Source: a virus (Duplodnaviria; Heunggongvirae; Uroviricota; Caudoviricetes). From it: a stretch of 64,000 nt of DNA. The position numbers and the translations under genes were made by a program. Below are positions 1 through 10,291 of the stretch, in pieces. The notes under the pieces are model-generated. The model saw only the letters and a program-made list of their open reading frames with translations, was not told the DNA's origin and made no database searches. The stretch lies in IMG/VR virus record IMGVR_UViG_3300005831_000057, one strand, 5' to 3'. The number at the start of each line of letters is the position of its first letter. The first letter of the stretch is position 1.

Positions 1-12
1 TCGATAATTGAT

Positions 13-609
13 ATGATTAATATATTCATTCCTCATGTAGATAGTATACCACATTATATAGACACTAACTATTCCAATAAAGTAGATCTGAATGCTGTAA
101 AAAAACTTCTAGACAAAGGCACTAAAATAAAAGATATAGCTAACAGATTAGGTGTTAAAATACATAGAATTTACGACTGTATATATATTAATAGTTTAAG
201 TTATCCAGACGATTATGTTAAAATGGGAGAAATCGGTGTCGTGCAACTAAACTTAAATGGAGAGTATATTAATAGATTTGATTCTATTAAAGATGCCAGT
301 AGGTATAATAATATTAAGTACCACAATATATCTCATGCTATGAATAAAAAAAGAGTGTATTCATCTGGATACTTATGGGTAAAAGAATGTGAATACGATA
401 AAAATTTTAGTGATTATTATGTTAAGAATATAAACTATGATGTAAATGTGCATAAATACAGTTTAAAAAATGAATATATATGTTCGTACGATAGTATATT
501 GGAAGCAGAAGTTGACACTGGAATAAAAAAGAATATGATATATGCAGTAGCGTTTAAGAATAAAAGAAAAACTACAGGAGGATTTATATGGAAGAATACT
601 CTTGTATAA
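13..609 (+). CDS. Homing-endonuclease-like DNA-binding protein; the frame is open to the window edge, so it may be 5'-truncated
   Basis: Helix-turn-helix segment (DIANRLGVKIHRIY). The C-terminal FDSIKDASRYNNIKYHNISHAMNKKRVYSSGYLWV block resembles the DNA-binding tail modules of phage HNH/GIY-YIG endonucleases. There is no stop between nt 1 and the ATG at 13. Confidence 0.4.
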   Translation: MINIFIPHVDSIPHYIDTNYSNKVDLNAVKKLLDKGTKIKDIANRLGVKIHRIYDCIYINSLSYPDDYVKMGEIGVVQLNLNGEYINRFDSIKDASRYNNIKYHNISHAMNKKRVYSSGYLWVKECEYDKNFSDYYVKNINYDVNVHKYSLKNEYICSYDSILEAEVDTGIKKNMIYAVAFKNKRKTTGGFIWKNTLV

Positions 610-811
610 TATTATAAGAATCCTCAGAGACTGCGGGATGTATATGGTAACATATATATTGAAGTTGTTTTCCCTGTCGCAAGACGAGAATAATATACAG
701 TCCGAACCTCATGCAATAATCCGATATAAAAAAGAAACATGAGAATAAGCCAGAAATGACTTATCGCCATACTTAGTATGGTCAGTAGCCAGTCATGGCG
801 AAAGTAACAGA
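610..811 (+). ncRNA. Structured GC-richer non-coding segment; candidate group I intron core (P3-P9) between the endonuclease ORF and the tape measure reading frame
   Basis: Locally higher GC than the flanks. Short hairpins (ccatacttagtatgg; gccagtcatggc) and complementary GACTG/CAGTC segments. Lies directly between an endonuclease-like ORF and a structural gene whose N-terminus looks internal. Confidence 0.25.
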
Positions 812-3800
812 ATGATGAAAGGCGAACTAGATAAATTAGGCGAAGAATCTGCTGGAGTAGAGTCGATTAGTAAAATGCAGACTCAAATACTAAACCTTAC
901 CAAAGGACAAGTAAATATTTTTAAAGATAACGGAGATTTTAAAGACACTTACACTATAATGGAGGGTATATCAAAGGTATTCTCAGATTTAAGCCAAACA
1001 AACCAAGCAGAGTTATTAGAAACTGTATCTGGAAAACAAAGAGCAAATCAGATAGCAGCCATAATACAATCTTTTCAATCTGGTCAAGCACAAAAGGCGT
1101 ATCAAGCATCGTTAAATTCGACTGGTTCGGCTATGAAAGAAAACGAAGAGAGAGCCAAAGGTTTAGAATATAAAATGGCTCAATTAAAAGCTACCATAGA
1201 AAAACTGTCTTCTGTTGTGATAGATTCTGATTTCTTAAAAACTCTTATGGATTCTGGAATAGGAGCTTTAGATGTAATTACTAAATTAATTGATAAATTT
1301 GGACTTATGAATATCGCTCTAGTGACATTAACATCAGTACTTAGCGCTAAAGGAATTGGGGTTGCTCAATTATTTAGTGGATTAAGTGGTGGAACTAAAA
1401 TCGGCTCTGGTATGTTCGAAGATATTAACAAATCTATCAAAGAATATAATAATAGCTTATCAAAATCAATAGATATACAGAATAAAAGCATAGACTCGAT
1501 ATCGATAGAAAACGAATCTCTTGGAAACTACCTAAGAACTAAGAATGGTGCAACTGCTAGTACTGGTGAATATGTAAAAGGTATGGCAAAAGCTAGAATA
1601 GCTACAATAAAAATGGCGGCGGCTACAATGGCTATGAATGTTGCGATGACTGTGGCTGTGTCTGCGATAATTGGATTGGCAGTGTCTGAATTTCAAAAAC
1701 TTACAACAGCGACTACAGAATCTCTTGACAAGTTCACCGAAATGACTGATAAGCGTAAAGAAGAATCTGCTAGTTTAGACAAACAGATATCAAAATATAA
1801 AGAACTTAGATCTATAATCGAGAGCAATGCATCTACAACTGAACAAGTCAATACTGCCAAAAGTCAATTGTTGGAAATACAAGACAACTTATTAAGCAGT
1901 TATTATGACGAAGCAGATGGTATTGATTTAGTTAATGGCAAAATGGACGATCAAATAGCTAAGATGAAAAAGATATCGGTAGAAGCTTCAAGAAAATATA
2001 CTATATCTAATTTTGATAGTTATGAAAAGTCAAGAAAGTATTTGGAAGAAAACAAATGGTATAGTGCAATTCCTGCATTTTCAAAAACTGGAATAAAGAA
2101 AGATGCTGCCGACATAGGCGAAGACTTCTTTAAAAAGCAAGGATTTACAACTGAAAAATATACTGCTTGGGATAAGAGTAACCAAAGTTTAAAAAATCCT
2201 ATGGGAACAGCAGAGATGTTGAAAGTGTACCTTCCAGCTTCGACTAGAGAAGAGGCTATAAAGAAGTTTAACAACTTGTTCGACGCATTAAACAAAGAGT
2301 TCGGAAGTAATAATCCTAAGATAGCATCGCTTAAAAGTGCCATATCTAAACAGTTGGAAGATTATGGTCTTGACGAAGAGGCTATAGGAAAACAAAGAGC
2401 TAATATTGAAGAATATCTTAAGAATGTAGTAATATCTGATGATAGGCTCAGACCTATATACCAAAAGGCTCTTGACGCAAAAGATGCTTACGATACTGCT
2501 GTTAAAGCTGGTGACGCAGAAGCTATAAAATCAGCTCAGAATAATATAAAGGCTGTTAAAGAAGACGCTAAGATAGCAGAAGGTATTATAGAAGGATCTG
2601 GAAAAATATTTTCTAATTTATTTAGTGGCTTAGACTTATCAACTAAAGTTTTAGAAGAATTTAATGTAGTAGCAAAAGATACGTCGTTTAATATGTCAGA
2701 AGACGATGTTAAGCTATTAGAGACTTATAATACCAAGCTTAAAGATATTTATGACAAAATGCAATCAATGGACAAACTTAGTCAGTCTGATGCATTAGCT
2801 ATAATAACACAATATAGTGACTTTGATTGGAACTCTGTAGGAGCTATTAACAAAGACGGATCTATAAACGTCGAAAATATGGCTACTGGAATGAGTAAAT
2901 TATACAATTCCACTCTTAAGTTGGCACAAGAAGCATTTCCTAATTTATCAAGTGCTATGAACATATTTAAAAGCGAGGCTTCAAATCAAGACTCTATAAT
3001 AAAATCTTCACTTGACGACATAAAAGAACTTGAAGACGTAAGTAAGAAATTGGCATCAAAGCAATCATTATCTGGTGAAGAAATGGCTGCACTCATAAGC
3101 AAATATCCGACACTTAATAGTCTTATAAAGAAAACATCAAAAGGTTATTCATTGGAAGAAGATGCTTTAAACGAACTTATACGTGCTAGAGGTTCTGAGG
3201 GCAATACTGCTATCGCTTCAAGAGTTAAGGCTTCTAAGGCTATAATACTTACTGCCAAAGCCAATATAGATGCTATAAATAAAGAATTGAAAGCTATTCA
3301 TAATGCTACTGTGGGATTATGGAAATATGCCGAAACTGCTTACTCTGTATTTGCAATGTTAAATAATGGTAAATTCGTAGATTGGGATACTCTAGTTGAT
3401 AGAATTGGTAAGAGAATGATAGATACTAACCAAAAAGAAATATCTAAACAAAACAAAGAGTTAGATAAATTATATGGCGAAATGTCTGATATTGCTACAT
3501 CTACCGATAAAACTAAAAAAGACAAGACTAAGAACACAGCTACGCTATTTGATTGGATTGCTAAAAAGCTTGATATAATGGCTAAGGCTACAGAAAATGC
3601 TAAGAATAAAATCGAAGATTTCTATAGTTTAGTTAATAAGAATAAAGCTACAAAAGATGCCATATCTAGTATACGAAAAGAGATTGACGCAAATAAAAGA
3701 GCTATAACAGAATATGGTAAATTGGCTGGAAAGGTCAGTCTTAGCAAAGGATGGAAAGATAAAGTAAAAAATGGCGGATATTCTATTTCTAGTGTAAGTG

Positions 3801-5641
3801 ACGAAAATACTATAAAGAAAATTCAAGAATATCAAGAATATTATGACAAGATAAATCAATCAAAAGAAAAGATATCGCAATTAAAGAAAGAAGAGTTAGA
3901 ACTTTATAGACAAAGACTTGAAAATATAAAGACATTCTACAATCTTCAAAAGTCATATCGTTCGGCTAGCACAGATACTATTCAGTCGAGAATAGATTCA
4001 AGGTCTAATTTGGGAGCGTCTACTACTTCGGCTAGCTACAAGAAAGACTTAGAGAATCTAAGAAATTCACAACAAAAAGAGTTAAAGATTATAAAAGAAG
4101 AGCGTACTAAGTATAAAAAGGATTTGGACGTACTATATAAATCTGGAAATATTAGCGGAACTGCTTATGTAGAAGGATTGACATATGTAAAAGAATTAGA
4201 TTCTGCTATAATAAACATGAACTCTTCGATTGCTGATACGCAAAACTCAATAGATAACATTAATTATAATAAGCTAATAATTGCTAACGATTCTCTTGAC
4301 AATAGTATAAACAAGCTTAATAATAGTTTAGACGTGAAACTTAAAAAGGGAATGAAACTTAGTACATCTGATTATACTAGCATAATATCTCAATATGAAA
4401 AAGTAGGAAGCAATATAAAGTCTCAGATTTCCGAAGCTAAAAGGTTGCAATCTAAAGAAAATGTAAATTCAGATATATGGTTAAAGTATGCAAGTGATAT
4501 ATCTTCGCTAGAGAATGAACTTACCGATGTTCAGATATCCATAATTGATACAAAGACAGCGATGTTTGAATCATTAATATGGCAACCGATAGAACGTGCT
4601 AATCAAAGTGCTGAAACGTTAAGAGGTAATCTGTCCTCTTTGGCTAATCTTATAGACGATTCTGATATGTTTGATAAGAGTGGCAATATAACAGCTTTGG
4701 GTGTAGCTAAACAATCATTGTTACAACAAGAATTTGATAACTCTAAGAAGTCTGTTAATGAATATGTTAAAGAAATAGATAAGTTAAATACTGCATATAA
4801 AGGTGGCAAGACTGGACTTACTAAAGATCAATATACTGAAAAGTTGCAATCTTTAAGAAGTGGATTATTGTCTACTGCATCTGAAACCAAGTCTTTATAT
4901 GAACAACTTAATAAACTTGAAAAAGATAGAAGTACAAAAGAGATAGAAAGCTTAAAAGAGTCTATTGCTTTACGTGAAAAGGCTTTGCAGAAAAAGAAAG
5001 ATTATTATGACTACGACAAACAGATTTCAGAAAAGACAAAAGATATAAGGTCGTTGCAATCACAAATAATTTCTCTTGAAGGCGTTACTACGGCAGAAGG
5101 TAAAGCTAGAAGGGCTAGACTTAGATCTGAATCAGAAAGGTTAGGATCTGAACTTAAGGATATAGTAAAAGATCATCAAATACAAGTTATAACTGATGGA
5201 TTTAATAATCTTAGCGAAACATTAGATACTCAACTAGAAGAACTTAATAATTCATCGTCTATATCAGCAGAAATGCTTATGCAAATAAAAGATTCTATAC
5301 TTGGCGGAACTGGCAATTCTTTAGATATTAGTAGGAATAGCTTTCAACAAGTGGGCGATATAATAAATGACAGTTCTATGTCAAAACGAGATAAGACTTC
5401 TCAATTAAAAGGTATAAAGGGGACTTTTAGAAATTCACTTCCGTCTTCTTTAAGCAATTCAATAGACTCGTCTAAATTATCAAGTTCTGGAGCTTTGCAG
5501 AATATAAATATAGATAATAGTATTACTGTTCAAGGAAGTATGGATAGTGCAACAATGTCACAACTCAAAGGTCTTAAAGGACAAATAGTGAATGATACAA
5601 TTAAAGAAATTAAGAGAAATTTAGAAAGAGCTGGTTATTAA
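812..5641 (+). CDS. Tail tape measure protein
   Basis: 1609 aa, extensively coiled-coil, with an internal hydrophobic segment (AATMAMNVAMTVAVSAIIGLAV). Sits immediately upstream of the Dit/Tal genes. Confidence 0.8.
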   Translation: MMKGELDKLGEESAGVESISKMQTQILNLTKGQVNIFKDNGDFKDTYTIMEGISKVFSDLSQTNQAELLETVSGKQRANQIAAIIQSFQSGQAQKAYQASLNSTGSAMKENEERAKGLEYKMAQLKATIEKLSSVVIDSDFLKTLMDSGIGALDVITKLIDKFGLMNIALVTLTSVLSAKGIGVAQLFSGLSGGTKIGSGMFEDINKSIKEYNNSLSKSIDIQNKSIDSISIENESLGNYLRTKNGATASTGEYVKGMAKARIATIKMAAATMAMNVAMTVAVSAIIGLAVSEFQKLTTATTESLDKFTEMTDKRKEESASLDKQISKYKELRSIIESNASTTEQVNTAKSQLLEIQDNLLSSYYDEADGIDLVNGKMDDQIAKMKKISVEASRKYTISNFDSYEKSRKYLEENKWYSAIPAFSKTGIKKDAADIGEDFFKKQGFTTEKYTAWDKSNQSLKNPMGTAEMLKVYLPASTREEAIKKFNNLFDALNKEFGSNNPKIASLKSAISKQLEDYGLDEEAIGKQRANIEEYLKNVVISDDRLRPIYQKALDAKDAYDTAVKAGDAEAIKSAQNNIKAVKEDAKIAEGIIEGSGKIFSNLFSGLDLSTKVLEEFNVVAKDTSFNMSEDDVKLLETYNTKLKDIYDKMQSMDKLSQSDALAIITQYSDFDWNSVGAINKDGSINVENMATGMSKLYNSTLKLAQEAFPNLSSAMNIFKSEASNQDSIIKSSLDDIKELEDVSKKLASKQSLSGEEMAALISKYPTLNSLIKKTSKGYSLEEDALNELIRARGSEGNTAIASRVKASKAIILTAKANIDAINKELKAIHNATVGLWKYAETAYSVFAMLNNGKFVDWDTLVDRIGKRMIDTNQKEISKQNKELDKLYGEMSDIATSTDKTKKDKTKNTATLFDWIAKKLDIMAKATENAKNKIEDFYSLVNKNKATKDAISSIRKEIDANKRAITEYGKLAGKVSLSKGWKDKVKNGGYSISSVSDENTIKKIQEYQEYYDKINQSKEKISQLKKEELELYRQRLENIKTFYNLQKSYRSASTDTIQSRIDSRSNLGASTTSASYKKDLENLRNSQQKELKIIKEERTKYKKDLDVLYKSGNISGTAYVEGLTYVKELDSAIINMNSSIADTQNSIDNINYNKLIIANDSLDNSINKLNNSLDVKLKKGMKLSTSDYTSIISQYEKVGSNIKSQISEAKRLQSKENVNSDIWLKYASDISSLENELTDVQISIIDTKTAMFESLIWQPIERANQSAETLRGNLSSLANLIDDSDMFDKSGNITALGVAKQSLLQQEFDNSKKSVNEYVKEIDKLNTAYKGGKTGLTKDQYTEKLQSLRSGLLSTASETKSLYEQLNKLEKDRSTKEIESLKESIALREKALQKKKDYYDYDKQISEKTKDIRSLQSQIISLEGVTTAEGKARRARLRSESERLGSELKDIVKDHQIQVITDGFNNLSETLDTQLEELNNSSSISAEMLMQIKDSILGGTGNSLDISRNSFQQVGDIINDSSMSKRDKTSQLKGIKGTFRNSLPSSLSNSIDSSKLSSSGALQNINIDNSITVQGSMDSATMSQLKGLKGQIVNDTIKEIKRNLERAGY

Positions 5642-5703
5642 TTATTTTGGTACGTGTAGTAATATTATTATGCGTACCAATTTATTAGAAAGGGGGATTT
5701 ATT

Positions 5704-6513
5704 TTGGTAACTTTTACTTATAATAGCGTAAGTTTATCTTCTATGTTAACTGATAGTATGACAGTCTGTAGGCTCGATGCGTCACAAGATTATCCAAGTT
5801 TTCTAGGAAGAGAAATTATCAAAGGAGAGGTTAGAGCAAGCAGACCAGTTGCTAACTTTTACGGAACAAAAAATGCAAATGTAATCGAATTTTCTTTTAC
5901 AATTGTAAAGTCTAATAAGACAGCGTTTAGCGCAACAGATATAAGAACTTTAAACAGACAATTAACATCTACGAAATATCCAAGATTTATGGTGTGGACT
6001 GACACTCCAAATACAATAACGTATCGTGGATTAATAGATACAGAATCATACTTGGTGCTTGGAAAGAATGTGTATGGAATAACTTACAAGTTTACATCAA
6101 ATTCTCCATATGTATGGTCTGATATAACTACGTCAACTACAATAGTAACGACTACTAGTAACGTGTCTATAAGCTATCCTACTGACGAAATGTATAATTA
6201 TGGATATCCGTCAATAACATTAAATAATTCTAGCGTAACTGCTAAAACATATACGATAACAAATACAACAGACAATAACAGAAGTATGACAATAACCGTT
6301 CCTCCTAGCACTACATATTATATAGATACCGAATATAATCGAGTTTTAGATGATTATGGTTCTATATCGTTCGAGGATTTAGGATGGGAAAATTTGACAA
6401 ATCTACAATGGATAAGATTGGTATATGGGGCTAACGCATTTGTATTGACTGGAGCTGGAACTATAACATTTTCTTTTAGATATCCAATGAAAGATATAGG
6501 GGTGATTATTTAA
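5704..6513 (+). CDS. Distal tail protein (Dit-like)
   Basis: 269 aa ORF directly after the TMP and overlapping the start of the large tail protein, the canonical siphovirus Dit position. Confidence 0.55.
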   Translation: MVTFTYNSVSLSSMLTDSMTVCRLDASQDYPSFLGREIIKGEVRASRPVANFYGTKNANVIEFSFTIVKSNKTAFSATDIRTLNRQLTSTKYPRFMVWTDTPNTITYRGLIDTESYLVLGKNVYGITYKFTSNSPYVWSDITTSTTIVTTTSNVSISYPTDEMYNYGYPSITLNNSSVTAKTYTITNTTDNNRSMTITVPPSTTYYIDTEYNRVLDDYGSISFEDLGWENLTNLQWIRLVYGANAFVLTGAGTITFSFRYPMKDIGVII

Positions 6514-9500
6514 TGGCTATTTATAACTTTTTGGAAGGATTATTAATAAAGAAAAATGGAGCGTTCGGAAGGCTTAGACTTAGTCAAGAAGAAATACTAT
6601 TATCCAAGAATACATATCTATTAACTCCTAGTAAAATATATCTGTGTAAACCCAATAGAAAGCCTATATGCGTCTTAAATGGAGTTGATATAAATAGTGT
6701 ACAAACAAGCGTTAGACTACAAGATATATGCAAACTATCGTTTTCTGTTGATAAATATATAACAATAGGTGATTCTGAAATTGTAAGTGATGGATATGAT
6801 ATACTTCATGCTTATATGGAAGTTTATGTTGAGAATATTGGATATTTTAAAATACAAGAGCCGTCAATAATGATAGAAGATGGAAGAGAATATAAAACTG
6901 TAAGCGGAGAGTCTGTAGATAAAGAGCTTATAGACAAAGATTTGATTGGGCTATCTATAAATATGGGAACAGAAGATTCGCTAGAAATGTTAGTTGATGG
7001 CAACGTTAGTAATGCTGGATTTAGAATAGAGCCTATTACATTTTATAATGAATTCAGACCAGAGTTGTCGCTTCTTGATATAGTAATGGAAAAGATTTCT
7101 GGATGGAGTATAGCGTTCGTAGACGAAAGTTTAAAGAATAGAGTATTTAATTTTGAAATAGATTCTAAAAATATATATGCATTTTTAACACAAGATGTTT
7201 CTGGTTCTGCTGAATGTATATTCTTCTTTAACACAATAGACAAAACTATAAGTGTTTATGCCAAAGAAAATATAGGCGAAGATACTGGAATATTTATATC
7301 ACAAGAAAACCTAATGAATACTGTTGACATAAATTGCGACTCTGATAGCATATATACGAGACTTAATGTTAGAGGAGAAGGCGAATTAAATTTATCAGCT
7401 GTTAACTTTGGTGACTTAAGGATATTTAATAGAGATTATTTTATGACTACAGACTATGTGTCTCAAGATATAATAGATAAGCATACTTATTGGAAAAATT
7501 ACAGAGAACTACAAAGATCATTGTATATACAAAAATTCAAAGATTATACTACACAATCTGAAATAGTGGACGAAATAACATATCGTGTACCCAATGATGG
7601 ATGTAATACTTACCAGTGGAATCAGTTAACTCAACTTGAACTAAATGCTAATCTAGTATATTACCAAGCCGAACTTACTACAATGCAAATATCAGTAGAC
7701 ACTACGCCACAATATACCACAGATGGTAATTATATAGCATGGACTCTTAATGGAAGCATAAATCATCAAGCATATATGAATTTATTGTTATCTCAAAACA
7801 AAGGATATTACACATATTACGAAATACTTAATTATATAATGCCAAATATAGAATTAGCGATTGGTAATTATGGTTTATCAGAAGAAAACAAAACGCCTTA
7901 TGTGGAAGATTGGGATACTAACTTTGACTTATATGGAACTGTGGAATTATCGACAAAAAGGGAAGCTTACAAAGAACAACTAATGATACTTTCAAATGTG
8001 GTAATCTTAGATGTGAATAGATCTCCCATATATTTCGCATCATTAACGGCTTCACAGAAATCACAAAATGGTATTAACGAGTCTACGTATGACAACTATT
8101 GCAACACTTACGCTAGTACAAAATTGAATCTTGACAATTGTGAGATATCGCTAGAAGAAAGACAAATAGAACTTAATGATGCTACGGATTTGATGAATAC
8201 ATATATATCTGATTTAGAGAATATGCGAAATGACGTTGATATTTCTAATGTACAATTTGGATTTACTACTGACGAATTAAACACAATTAATATTTTAAAT
8301 ATAGATACAGATTACGCAAATGATAATATATTGGTAACAGAAACTAATACGAGTATTGAAGCTATAGATGTCGCAAATGATTTATATCTTGACGCTACTG
8401 AAAAGTTAATATCACTATCTCAGCCACAATATAATTTTTCTACCACAATAGATAATTTATACAACATGATAGAATTTTATGATTGGAAAATAGATTTCAA
8501 AGTTGGTAATTTTATAAGAGTAGCTATAAGAGATGGTTATGTAGTAAAGTTTAGGCTTTCAGACATTACATTTAATCCTTGTGATGCAGAAAGCGAATTA
8601 TCGGTAACATATACAAATATGGTAAGATCTAAAAATGGGCTTAATGATTTTACGACTTTATTTGATTCTACAATATCAGCACAGAAAAACAGTATATCTT
8701 ATGCGTCAACTAAAGCTACTGGACAAATAGAATTGACTGCTGAATTGCTACAGAAAATATCAAATTCAAGTCAGATATCAAGCAAGATTTCTAATAGTCA
8801 AAGCGCCACATCTACAGATACAGAGCTCAAAACTAGCACAGTTGTAGGCGACGTTATTGGAGCTAGAAAAGTGGACGCTGAAATAATGACTGTTACAAAA
8901 GCCAATGTTAATGAATTATTTTCTGGAGACATAACATTTACTGGAACTATAACTGGTGGATCTTATGATGGCGGAGTTGACAATGGAGTTATAAAAAGTT
9001 TGAATTATGTTCCTAATACAAGCGGAACTAGATTGGACTTGGTTAATGGAAGTTTCGAAACTAGTAGTGCATTACTTCGTGGAGATATTTATGCTGACAA
9101 TGGATACATTGGTGGAGTAGATGGATTTACAATAGATACTAACGCAATCAGAAATGGGAAAACGACGTTCGCTGACTACGTAAATCAAGGTGTGTATATT
9201 TCTACTTCTGGAATTAGTATAGGTGATGCATTGGGTGGATGGATAGGAATAGATATAGACGGAACTATGGAGTTAAGAAGATATAATGAACTAGGTGTGT
9301 TACTTTCTTCTAATCGAGTAGAACCAGATTTAATAAATATCTATACAGATGATACATATTTTACAACCATATCAGATGGGTTAGTTTTATGTAGCGGAGA
9401 TATTTTGGCTAATTACAATCCTACTACTACAAATGGTATATCATTAGCTACGATAGGTTACGATTCTGGGTGGATTGCTCCTACGATATTAGCATCATTT

Positions 9501-9809
9501 CAGAATTCCGATGTGGCAATATCTTACAGAAAACTAGGCAAACATATTGAATTAAGAGGATCATTTTCGTTAATCAGTGGGACATTATCTGGTTCGAGAA
9601 CAATATTTACACTTCCAGATGGATATAGACCGACTACAACTAGAAGATATGTAGCAAGAACAAGTACGCCAACGACAATGTTAGCAATAACAGTCAACAC
9701 AACTGGCGTGGTAACTATACAAGCACAATCAGTTACAACAACTCCTACGTACATTAATTTTACGACAGGTGTAGTGTATTATTTAGATCAAGTATCGTTT
9801 TTGATTTAA
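6513..9809 (+). CDS. Tail-associated lysin / tail endopeptidase-like protein (Tal) with a C-terminal receptor-binding-like region
   Basis: 1098 aa in the canonical position after Dit. The C-terminus is rich in G/T/S repeats typical of fibre or RBP modules. Confidence 0.55.
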   Translation: MAIYNFLEGLLIKKNGAFGRLRLSQEEILLSKNTYLLTPSKIYLCKPNRKPICVLNGVDINSVQTSVRLQDICKLSFSVDKYITIGDSEIVSDGYDILHAYMEVYVENIGYFKIQEPSIMIEDGREYKTVSGESVDKELIDKDLIGLSINMGTEDSLEMLVDGNVSNAGFRIEPITFYNEFRPELSLLDIVMEKISGWSIAFVDESLKNRVFNFEIDSKNIYAFLTQDVSGSAECIFFFNTIDKTISVYAKENIGEDTGIFISQENLMNTVDINCDSDSIYTRLNVRGEGELNLSAVNFGDLRIFNRDYFMTTDYVSQDIIDKHTYWKNYRELQRSLYIQKFKDYTTQSEIVDEITYRVPNDGCNTYQWNQLTQLELNANLVYYQAELTTMQISVDTTPQYTTDGNYIAWTLNGSINHQAYMNLLLSQNKGYYTYYEILNYIMPNIELAIGNYGLSEENKTPYVEDWDTNFDLYGTVELSTKREAYKEQLMILSNVVILDVNRSPIYFASLTASQKSQNGINESTYDNYCNTYASTKLNLDNCEISLEERQIELNDATDLMNTYISDLENMRNDVDISNVQFGFTTDELNTINILNIDTDYANDNILVTETNTSIEAIDVANDLYLDATEKLISLSQPQYNFSTTIDNLYNMIEFYDWKIDFKVGNFIRVAIRDGYVVKFRLSDITFNPCDAESELSVTYTNMVRSKNGLNDFTTLFDSTISAQKNSISYASTKATGQIELTAELLQKISNSSQISSKISNSQSATSTDTELKTSTVVGDVIGARKVDAEIMTVTKANVNELFSGDITFTGTITGGSYDGGVDNGVIKSLNYVPNTSGTRLDLVNGSFETSSALLRGDIYADNGYIGGVDGFTIDTNAIRNGKTTFADYVNQGVYISTSGISIGDALGGWIGIDIDGTMELRRYNELGVLLSSNRVEPDLINIYTDDTYFTTISDGLVLCSGDILANYNPTTTNGISLATIGYDSGWIAPTILASFQNSDVAISYRKLGKHIELRGSFSLISGTLSGSRTIFTLPDGYRPTTTRRYVARTSTPTTMLAITVNTTGVVTIQAQSVTTTPTYINFTTGVVYYLDQVSFLI

Positions 9810-9856
9810 TTAATTATAGATATAATAAATAGAGAAAGTACGAAGGAGGAAATGAG

Positions 9857-10291
9857 TTGAATCACGAGTGTATAAAACTAGATAAGATAGAAGCTATTGA
9901 TGACAAGGTAAATAAATTATCAGACAATTTAAAGAATTCAGAATACAGACTTGATAGATTGTTTGAAATTACTGGATGTATGCAAAAAATGGAATCATAT
10001 GTTATTATGCTTATCGACGCAGCTGACGTGCAGAACAAGTTTAATGATGGATTTGTAGATTCTGTCAACCAGATATCACACACATTAAGAGCTATATCTG
10101 ACACTAGCAATATCGCAATAATTGGGATGAACAAGTTAACAGAGAAGATTTTAAAAGTAGAGGAAGATTCTAAGATAACAATAGAAGCTACCAATATAAT
10201 ACCTTTTATCAAGAAACATGGTGGTAAAATTATTACTGGAATAATAGTAGGAATAACAGCTATAATTGCAAAGCTACAAGGTATTTTTTAA
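9857..10291 (+). CDS. XhlA-like lysis accessory protein (N-terminal coiled coil, C-terminal transmembrane helix)
   Basis: AAGGAGGA RBS then a TTG start. Coiled-coil N-terminus and C-terminal TM helix (IITGIIVGITAIIAKL). Immediately precedes the holin and endolysin. Confidence 0.4.
   Translation: MNHECIKLDKIEAIDDKVNKLSDNLKNSEYRLDRLFEITGCMQKMESYVIMLIDAADVQNKFNDGFVDSVNQISHTLRAISDTSNIAIIGMNKLTEKILKVEEDSKITIEATNIIPFIKKHGGKIITGIIVGITAIIAKLQGIF

Follow-up and report, generated by a model that had tools for sequence, protein, structure and literature searches.

The DNA analysed here, a 64,000-nucleotide (nt) stretch of the Caudoviricetes record IMGVR_UViG_3300005831_000057 (the window), comes from a large, AT-rich phage. 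It opens inside an endonuclease-like open reading frame (ORF), which is followed by about 200 nt of non-coding sequence and by a long ORF for a tape-measure protein (TMP). The element in question is a candidate group I intron, proposed in a preliminary description of the window, that would carry the endonuclease ORF and interrupt the TMP gene. The features assigned to the putative intron and to the exon that follows it are listed below, with group I names (P, paired element; J, joining segment; R and S, core elements) for the parts of the RNA.

1–609, + strand: putative homing-endonuclease ORF, C-terminal 202 codons and stop, with a helix-turn-helix (HTH)-like stretch and two NUMOD1 DNA-binding repeats
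606–618, + strand: P6a 3' strand AUAAUAUUAUAAG, overlapping the ORF stop; predicted partner CUUAUAAUAUUAU upstream of the window
621–623, + strand: P6 3' strand UCC; predicted partner GGA, upstream
626–633, + strand: R-like core element AGAGACUG, with the P7 5' strand GACUG at 629–633
637–660, + strand: P7.1-type hairpin between P7 and P3'; 10-bp stem, GUAA (GNRA) loop at 647–650
664–673, + strand: P3 3' strand GUUGUUUUCC; predicted partner GGAAAACAAC, then UAUA, upstream of the window
674–688, + strand: P8 hairpin, UGUC-GCAA-GACG plus an outer C-G pair with a bulged A
689–707, + strand: J8/7 and S-like element AAUAAUAUACAGUCCGAAC, with the P7 3' strand CAGUC at 698–702
708–743, + strand: P9, CUCAUG (708–713) with CAUGAG (738–743) around the conserved loop AUAAUC…GAAA
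745–764, + strand: P9.1 hairpin, GAAA tetraloop at 753–756
766–799, + strand: P9.2 hairpin (766–782), conserved CAGUA (783–787) and P9.3 hairpin (788–799)
800–814, + strand: conserved intron tail GAAAGUAACAGAAUG, terminal G (omega G) at 814 as the predicted 3' splice site
815–5641, + strand: predicted TMP exon 2, 1608 codons and stop, beginning MKGELDKLGEE…

The endonuclease-like ORF is open to the window edge, as originally described: frame 1 has no stop codon from nt 1 to the TAA at 607–609. Its 202-residue product contains two NUMOD1 stretches (E = 1.6e-11), a match to the I-HmuI NUMOD-like domain and weak HTH matches in Pfam, and its PHROG matches are to families labelled HNH endonuclease or HTH DNA-binding protein. 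No match to it was found by tblastn against phages or in a set of 5.8 billion proteins. Homologs were found among the relatives described below (loci L003–L106, from IMG/VR; L001 is phiCD211 and L003 is TR-TP1, PQ571309): all 202 residues align with residues 362–560 of an ORF in L054 (39% identity, E = 3e-39), and the product matches residues 228–357 of the P6a-loop ORF of L008 (42% identity, E = 6e-30). Because these alignments fall on late residues of the L008 and L054 proteins, approximately 230–360 N-terminal residues, including the nuclease domain, are predicted to lie upstream of the window. The catalytic domain of the homologs in L008, L054 and L065 was not recognized in sequence searches of Pfam, NCBIfam and the PDB, and PHROG 559 (annotated 'HNH endonuclease') was the sole match to their nuclease region; the motif …PTDIVNHRLKIAIEIQSWFHD… in this region looks PD-(D/E)xK/EDxHD-like by eye. 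Judged by its domains and homologs, the window ORF is a modular homing endonuclease with a predicted cleavage activity and target. It shares NUMOD modules with enzymes of the I-HmuI/I-TevI type (NUMOD1 repeats and the I-HmuI NUMOD-like match in the window), but differs from them in that its catalytic domain lies outside the window and is known only through homologs.

The downstream ORF spans 812–5641 (1609 residues), in a frame that extends upstream without a stop as far as 749, directly after a TAA (746–748). Its match to the PHROG tail length tape-measure family (3.7e-37) begins only at position 781 of the 2625-position profile, and a tblastn search of GenBank phages with its first 500 residues returned TMPs from phages of Clostridium, Enterocloster, Thomasclavelia and Brevibacillus. 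The TMP of Brevibacillus phage Sundance is a single uninterrupted gene of 2528 residues, and the match to it starts at approximately residue 940. On these alignments the window ORF encodes an interior segment of a tape-measure protein and is not a complete gene. The preliminary description had taken the ORF to be internal, with a frame open to nt 749, and both points hold; the stretch 749–814, however, is made up of P9.1–P9.3 and the tail and is not coding.

A covarying RNA family downstream of the endonuclease ORF

Nucleotides 610–814 contain no credible ORF and have a GC content of 0.37–0.38, compared with 0.23–0.30 in the ORF. The predicted fold is a row of hairpins with a minimum free-energy z-score of −2.4. 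The stretch had been described as about 200 nt of GC-richer, hairpin-rich non-coding sequence, a description that is borne out by the composition and the folding, although the end lies at 814 rather than 811. Its position 614–707 matches the spacer that follows the second of the endonuclease genes in Thomasclavelia phage TR-TP1 with 78% identity (distant blastn, E = 4e-10).

IMG/VR was searched with the two-element pattern AGAGACTG-N45-75-ATACAGTCCGAAC, which retrieved 103 stretches that reduce to 72 unique sequences. Of the 72, 65 have the same architecture throughout the downstream part and share the tail (G)AAAGUAACAG-N-UG (GAAAGUAACAG-N-UG). An alignment (A1) of 49 unique 3' halves, including the window, was made with P7, P7.1, P9, P9.1, P9.2 and P9.3 imposed. 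In P7.1, P9, P9.1, P9.2 and P9.3, 95.2% of the cells are paired, compared with 24–35% when the 3' partners are slid by one to three columns. Double-sided changes occur in 429 cells and the covariation score is 0.595, against 0.116 or less in the slid controls; the observed values were reached by none of 500 shuffles. By helix, P7.1 is paired in 94% of cells with compensatory changes in nine of its ten pairs, P9 in 98.6% (five of six pairs), P9.1 in 93.9% (seven of seven), and P9.2 and P9.3 in 90–95%, again with compensatory changes. P7.1, P9.2 and P9.3 are also predicted by RNAfold, in the case of P7.1 independently.

The R-like element AGAGACUG, similar to the Rfam consensus UUCAaAGACUA, is unchanged in 49 of 49 aligned members and is complementary to 698–702, and AUACAGUCCGAAC (695–707) is invariant across the family and similar to the Rfam consensus AAGAUAUAGUC; by eye, 623–633 (UCAGAGACUG) and 695–707 look like the R and S core elements. 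P7 pairs GACUG (629–633) with CAGUC (698–702), with P3' and P8 between its strands, and being invariant it is uninformative by covariation. P8 was out of register in the MAFFT alignments and was omitted from the model; when each sequence was folded separately, a hairpin of unrelated sequence was found at its position in 44 of the 49 members.

A covariance model (R1) was built from 47 relatives, with the window excluded. It matches the window at 618–814 on the + strand over all 191 model positions with 168 bits and E = 1.8e-45 (a rough value, because the model calibration was shortened), and this is the sole match within the 64-kb window. The window sequence 618–814 therefore belongs to a structurally covarying RNA family.

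The match also bears on whether the element is alive. The region could in principle be the remains of an intron that has decayed and no longer splices, or a pseudogene region, with a non-functional TMP or a defective phage, and the fact that half of the ribozyme is visible, so that its integrity can be judged only in part, leaves some room for this view. Every modelled pair in 618–814 is canonical, however, and all family-invariant positions are kept; the endonuclease frame is unbroken up to the stop codon and aligns in full length with the L054 ORF, and exon 2 is an intact ORF of 1608 codons. We therefore consider a dead remnant to be extremely unlikely.

Group I architecture and the tape-measure junction

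In the relatives with sequence available on both sides, a conserved 5' half (…P3-UAUA-P4-AAA-P5-P4'-GGAAAGAY-P6a…) precedes the R element, either directly or at a distance of 0.5–2 kb. For 21 non-redundant relatives, the 5' core was joined to the 3' core with the ORF deleted, and the resulting constructs were aligned (A3). P3, P4, P5, P6, P6a, P7 and P7.1 are paired in 94.8% of cells, compared with 33–39% in slid controls, and compensatory changes are seen in 35 of 46 pairs (P3, 6/7; P4, 3/6; P5, 5/5; P6a, 10/10), while in P6 GGA/UCC swaps with GCA/UGC, GGG/CCC and GGU/ACC. In the 21 relatives the partner of the P3 3' segment is the stretch that immediately precedes the conserved UAUA-P4 motif, and P3 crosses P7 as a canonical pseudoknot. 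P1 hairpins with a U·G at the splice site are also present in relatives, as is P10. The intron family thus has group I architecture.

Where family members contain an ORF, it lies between the P6a strands, and its stop is no more than about 40 nt from the R element in most members; the ORFs homologous to that of the window are placed in this way in L008, L054 and L065. In the window, 606–618 is the position homologous to the P6a 3' strand UCAUAAUUAUAAG of L008 and L083, directly before AAUCC, and the stop codon at 607–609 falls inside this strand, which places the ORF in the loop of a peripheral helix of the ribozyme. Such an arrangement is described in reviews, as are the six families of endonucleases (PMC3984707). 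Given the position of the ORF in P6a, the approximately 200 nt after it are only the 3' part of the core. The stretch had been likened in size to a complete P3–P9 core; what it contains instead is P6a', P6', P7, P7.1, P3', P8, P7' and P9–P9.3. Another parse, with AAUCCUCAG (619–627) as Q/P4' and GCAAGACGAG as R, was rejected: it has no matching P7' or J8/7 downstream, and in the full-length relatives AAUCC is the P6 3' strand.

The long covarying hairpin after P7 (637–660) and the series P9, P9.1, P9.2 and P9.3 may point to subgroup IA; a second, P7.2 hairpin is not evident in the window element. P7.1/P7.2 and an extended P9 are features of IA2 introns (PMC4227781). The subclass may tentatively be described as IA-like with a single long P7.1.

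Relatives at the same TMP site allowed the junction to be followed with and without an ORF. L083 has an ORF-less intron of 358 nt between …NALKIVSMRLRG and MKGDLQEL…, the same TMP site as in the window; L008 has the same intron at this site with a 374-residue ORF in P6a, and L054 has a 567-residue ORF at the same site. The start of exon 2 is alike in all three. When the L083 intron was removed in silico, the spliced TMP aligned unbroken through the junction to the TMP of Sundance, which has no intron (E = 4e-66): …ALKIVSMRLRG|MKGDLQEL… against …ALKTVSMRLRGVDEEG… (DPDKAGNALKIVSMRLRG|MKGDLQELGEDVDE against DPKIVGTALKTVSMRLRGVDEEGK). The alignment of an exon-joined TMP with an intron-less homolog, which the preliminary description had suggested, therefore gives a continuous protein in this same-site relative.

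The 3' splice site was placed by comparison within the family. The family tail ends …GUAACAG-A(A/U)UG, with the general form …GUAACAG-N(2-6)-UG, and in three relatives that share the same exon (AACGCUUUAAAAAC…) the preceding spacers differ in length (AUAUUG, AAUUUG and AAAAAAUG). Because the spacer before UG varies in length ahead of an identical exon, the final G is taken as the terminal G. In L083 only a site after this G keeps the frame with exon 1 ending …GGU, whose U forms the U·G pair; a P10 of 5–7 bp is possible at this site. The P1 of L083 is GAGGU|AAAUUUUUAU-GCCUC with P10 AUGAA/UUUAU, and L083 and L008, at the same site, have GAGGU|…GCCUC and this P10 in common. On this comparison the window intron is predicted to end at G814 and exon 2 to start at 815 (AUG AAA GGC…). 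An omega G at 810 (…AACAG|A) was considered and rejected, as it breaks the frame and weakens P10 in L083 and the spacer length varies. The first ATG (812–814) of the ORF that reads MMKGEL would then be intron, because the intron ends at G814. The last four bases of the intron are almost always A(U/A)UG in the 65 relatives, giving an in-frame AUG or UUG before exon 2; the extra Met of MMKGEL would be present because this intron-end AUG directly precedes exon 2 in frame.

These ATGs bear on the main alternative, in which the insertion of a free-standing endonuclease gene has left the TMP as two separately translated genes, with no splicing and with the 1609-residue ORF translated from its own ATG. 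In-frame ATGs are indeed found at 812 and 815, and in the GenBank record of TR-TP1 the TMP pieces and the endonucleases are annotated as separate coding sequences. No GGAGG-type ribosome-binding site precedes 812 or 815, however, and the GAAAG that does precede them belongs to the family-invariant tail, whatever the site of the gene downstream; the same-site relative L026 has an exon 2 that starts ATAELED, with no Met. Further, the 205 nt that separate the ORF from exon 2 are heavily covarying RNA, whereas a mere spacer would not keep structure, the relatives carry the complementary 5' half of the ribozyme ahead of the ORF, and an ORF-less copy is present at the same codon in L083. We consider the split gene to be very unlikely. 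TMP homologs that start at the same Met had been named as a ground for rejecting the intron; such homologs would not disprove it, since gene callers report exon 2 as a gene of its own.

Other observations count against the presence of an intron and have to be set beside this evidence. Of P3, P6 and P6a, only the 3' strands are in the window, with the 5' partners, exon 1 and the nuclease domain upstream of nt 1, and the in-frame ATG at the exon 2 boundary is compatible with separate translation of exon 2. The Rfam search suggested in the preliminary description was negative: Rfam 15 gave no match to Intron_gpI (RF00028) at E ≤ 10 in window ranges 1–2000, 560–860 and 612–830, one of which began just after the ORF to permit truncated matches. 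The complete ORF-less intron of L083 (1434–1791) likewise gave no Intron_gpI match in Rfam, and because a complete relative is missed too, the negative result on the window is attributed to a limit of model sensitivity. When L001 and L003 were scanned together no group I match was obtained at E ≤ 0.1; scanned alone, phiCD211 (L001, 5633–5897) matched Intron_gpI with 41.7 bits and E = 3e-9, under the gathering threshold of 50. Taken together, the R1 match, the covariation and the relatives at the same TMP codon agree with the original proposal, and we hold with high confidence that the window begins within a mobile group I intron which carries an endonuclease ORF in its P6a loop and splits the TMP gene.

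Relatives of the intron and known systems

Group I introns of the IA1/IA2 type (TMP-IVS1, TMP-IVS2 and TMP-IVS3) have been reported at three TMP sites in prophages of the Bacillus cereus group (Tourasse & Kolstø, 2008; PMC2504315). Related introns occur there at different sites, with P1 adapted to the site, and some are without a complete endonuclease gene (PMC2504315). The window intron resembles them in belonging to a set with several positions in the conserved part of the TMP. By description, it differs in host clade and in that its family is found at at least five TMP sites in uncultured IMG/VR phages with the ORF in P6a. The window intron therefore adds to a known kind, as TMP group I introns at several sites have already been published.

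An intron is also annotated in Clostridium phage phiCD211/phiCDIF1296T, in which an Intron_gpI splits a homologous TMP in the same conserved block. The TMP is recorded as two coding sequences around the intron, and the window match starts approximately 26 codons into the second. Unlike that of the window, the phiCD211 intron has no ORF, has a different core sequence and is detected by Rfam; its insertion lies roughly 15 codons upstream of the window site in a by-eye alignment. The td intron of phage T4, in the thymidylate synthase gene, is of subgroup IA2 and carries I-TevI, a GIY-YIG enzyme. It resembles the window intron in having an extra pairing or pairings after P7, an extended P9 and an ORF looped from P6a, but has P7.1 plus P7.2, whereas one long P7.1 hairpin is seen in the window intron.

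The closest GenBank relative of the ribozyme is the second TMP insertion of Thomasclavelia phages TR-TP1 and TR-TP2 (PQ571309 and PQ571310). In TR-TP1 it has the same 3' architecture and tail (…AACAGAUUG), with its ORF between the P6a strands, but it lies at a different TMP site (…VYEEG|VGWTW…) and is annotated only as an 'HNH endonuclease' coding sequence. Its endonuclease also differs, with NUMOD4 and CapR-like zinc modules and an IEFQGEQH motif. The TR-TP1 annotation gives TMP or hypothetical coding sequences in three pieces and two 'HNH endonuclease' coding sequences, and no introns. The two insertions are at 4553–6030 and 8368–9876; the second belongs to the family of the window intron, and in the first another group I core, with Q, R and S elements and P9, can be made out by eye before the ORF.

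Within IMG/VR, family members are seen at at least five places in the TMP core. Junctions read …NEVG|NN(Y/F)AISS…, …D..VG|(N/T/S)AL(K/R)T.S…, …SMRLRG|MKGEL… (the site of the window), …AAG|LRTISL… and …YEEG|VGWTW…, and at more sites exon 2 starts …(F/Y)R.G.GWV.ES… or WE.D.D.IKDA…. Wherever the junction is clearly resolved, the last codon of exon 1 is GGU (Gly). In some loci the tail of a second family intron (…AAGUAACAG…) stands approximately 8–19 codons upstream of the next 5' splice site (about 22–27 nt in L025, L039 and L050, and 57 nt in L026; also in L033). Because the second tail is so near the next 5' splice site, some TMP genes appear to carry at least two family introns with micro-exons between them.

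The P6a loop also carries ORFs of other kinds. At least two other types of endonuclease are found, one in L004, L010, L012 and L098 with the motif IEV(Q/M)GDYWH and a weak Vsr match (E = 0.008, L004), and one in L003, L028, L069, L104 and L105 with IE(F/Y)(D/Q)G..H after zinc-ribbon/CapR-like repeats. Both look Vsr/EDxHD-like by eye, and neither nuclease domain is recognized by Pfam. The ORF of L047 and L058 has HTH repeats only. The ORFs of L025, L039 and L050 (153–175 residues) are not endonuclease-like and have a signal-peptide/lipobox-like start (MRNMKRKRHLILLAIITTLSFCGCGK…), an unusual cargo for a group I intron. In our judgement the chances are about even that the window intron is one of a large, uncurated, IA-like lineage invisible to Rfam, with at least five to six sites in the TMP core of uncultured, mostly large phages, tandem copies and varied P6a cargo.

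Proposed splicing and homing, and their implications

The 5' half of the ribozyme upstream of the window, the splicing reaction itself and the activity and target of the endonuclease are inferred from the relatives and from group I chemistry. In the proposed mechanism the TMP pre-mRNA would fold and a guanosine bound in P7 would attack the 5' splice site, which is expected to follow the U of …AGA GGU, as in the same-site relatives. The freed exon 1 would then attack after G814, joining …(S)MR(L/I)RG to MKGELDKLGEE… in one long TMP, with a predicted spliced junction …GGU|AUGAAAGGC. The joined protein would be approximately 2100 residues long if exon 1 encodes about 500 residues, as it does in L083. 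The endonuclease presumably cuts the intron-less TMP alleles of co-infecting relatives near the junction, where the target is predicted to resemble …ATGCGTTTAAGAGGT|ATGAAAGGCGAA…, and repair would copy the intron and its ORF into the cut alleles (homing).

For annotation, the Rfam group I model misses a whole phage intron lineage, which the two-element core pattern or R1 retrieves, and scans of phage genomes at the gathering threshold would under-call group I introns. The annotation of exons as separate genes is an error present in deposited genomes such as that of TR-TP1, and where exons are treated in this way the length of the TMP, and with it the predicted length of the tail, is underestimated. 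The picture of the TMP core as a hotspot for mobile group I introns is extended, not changed, by the window intron and its family.

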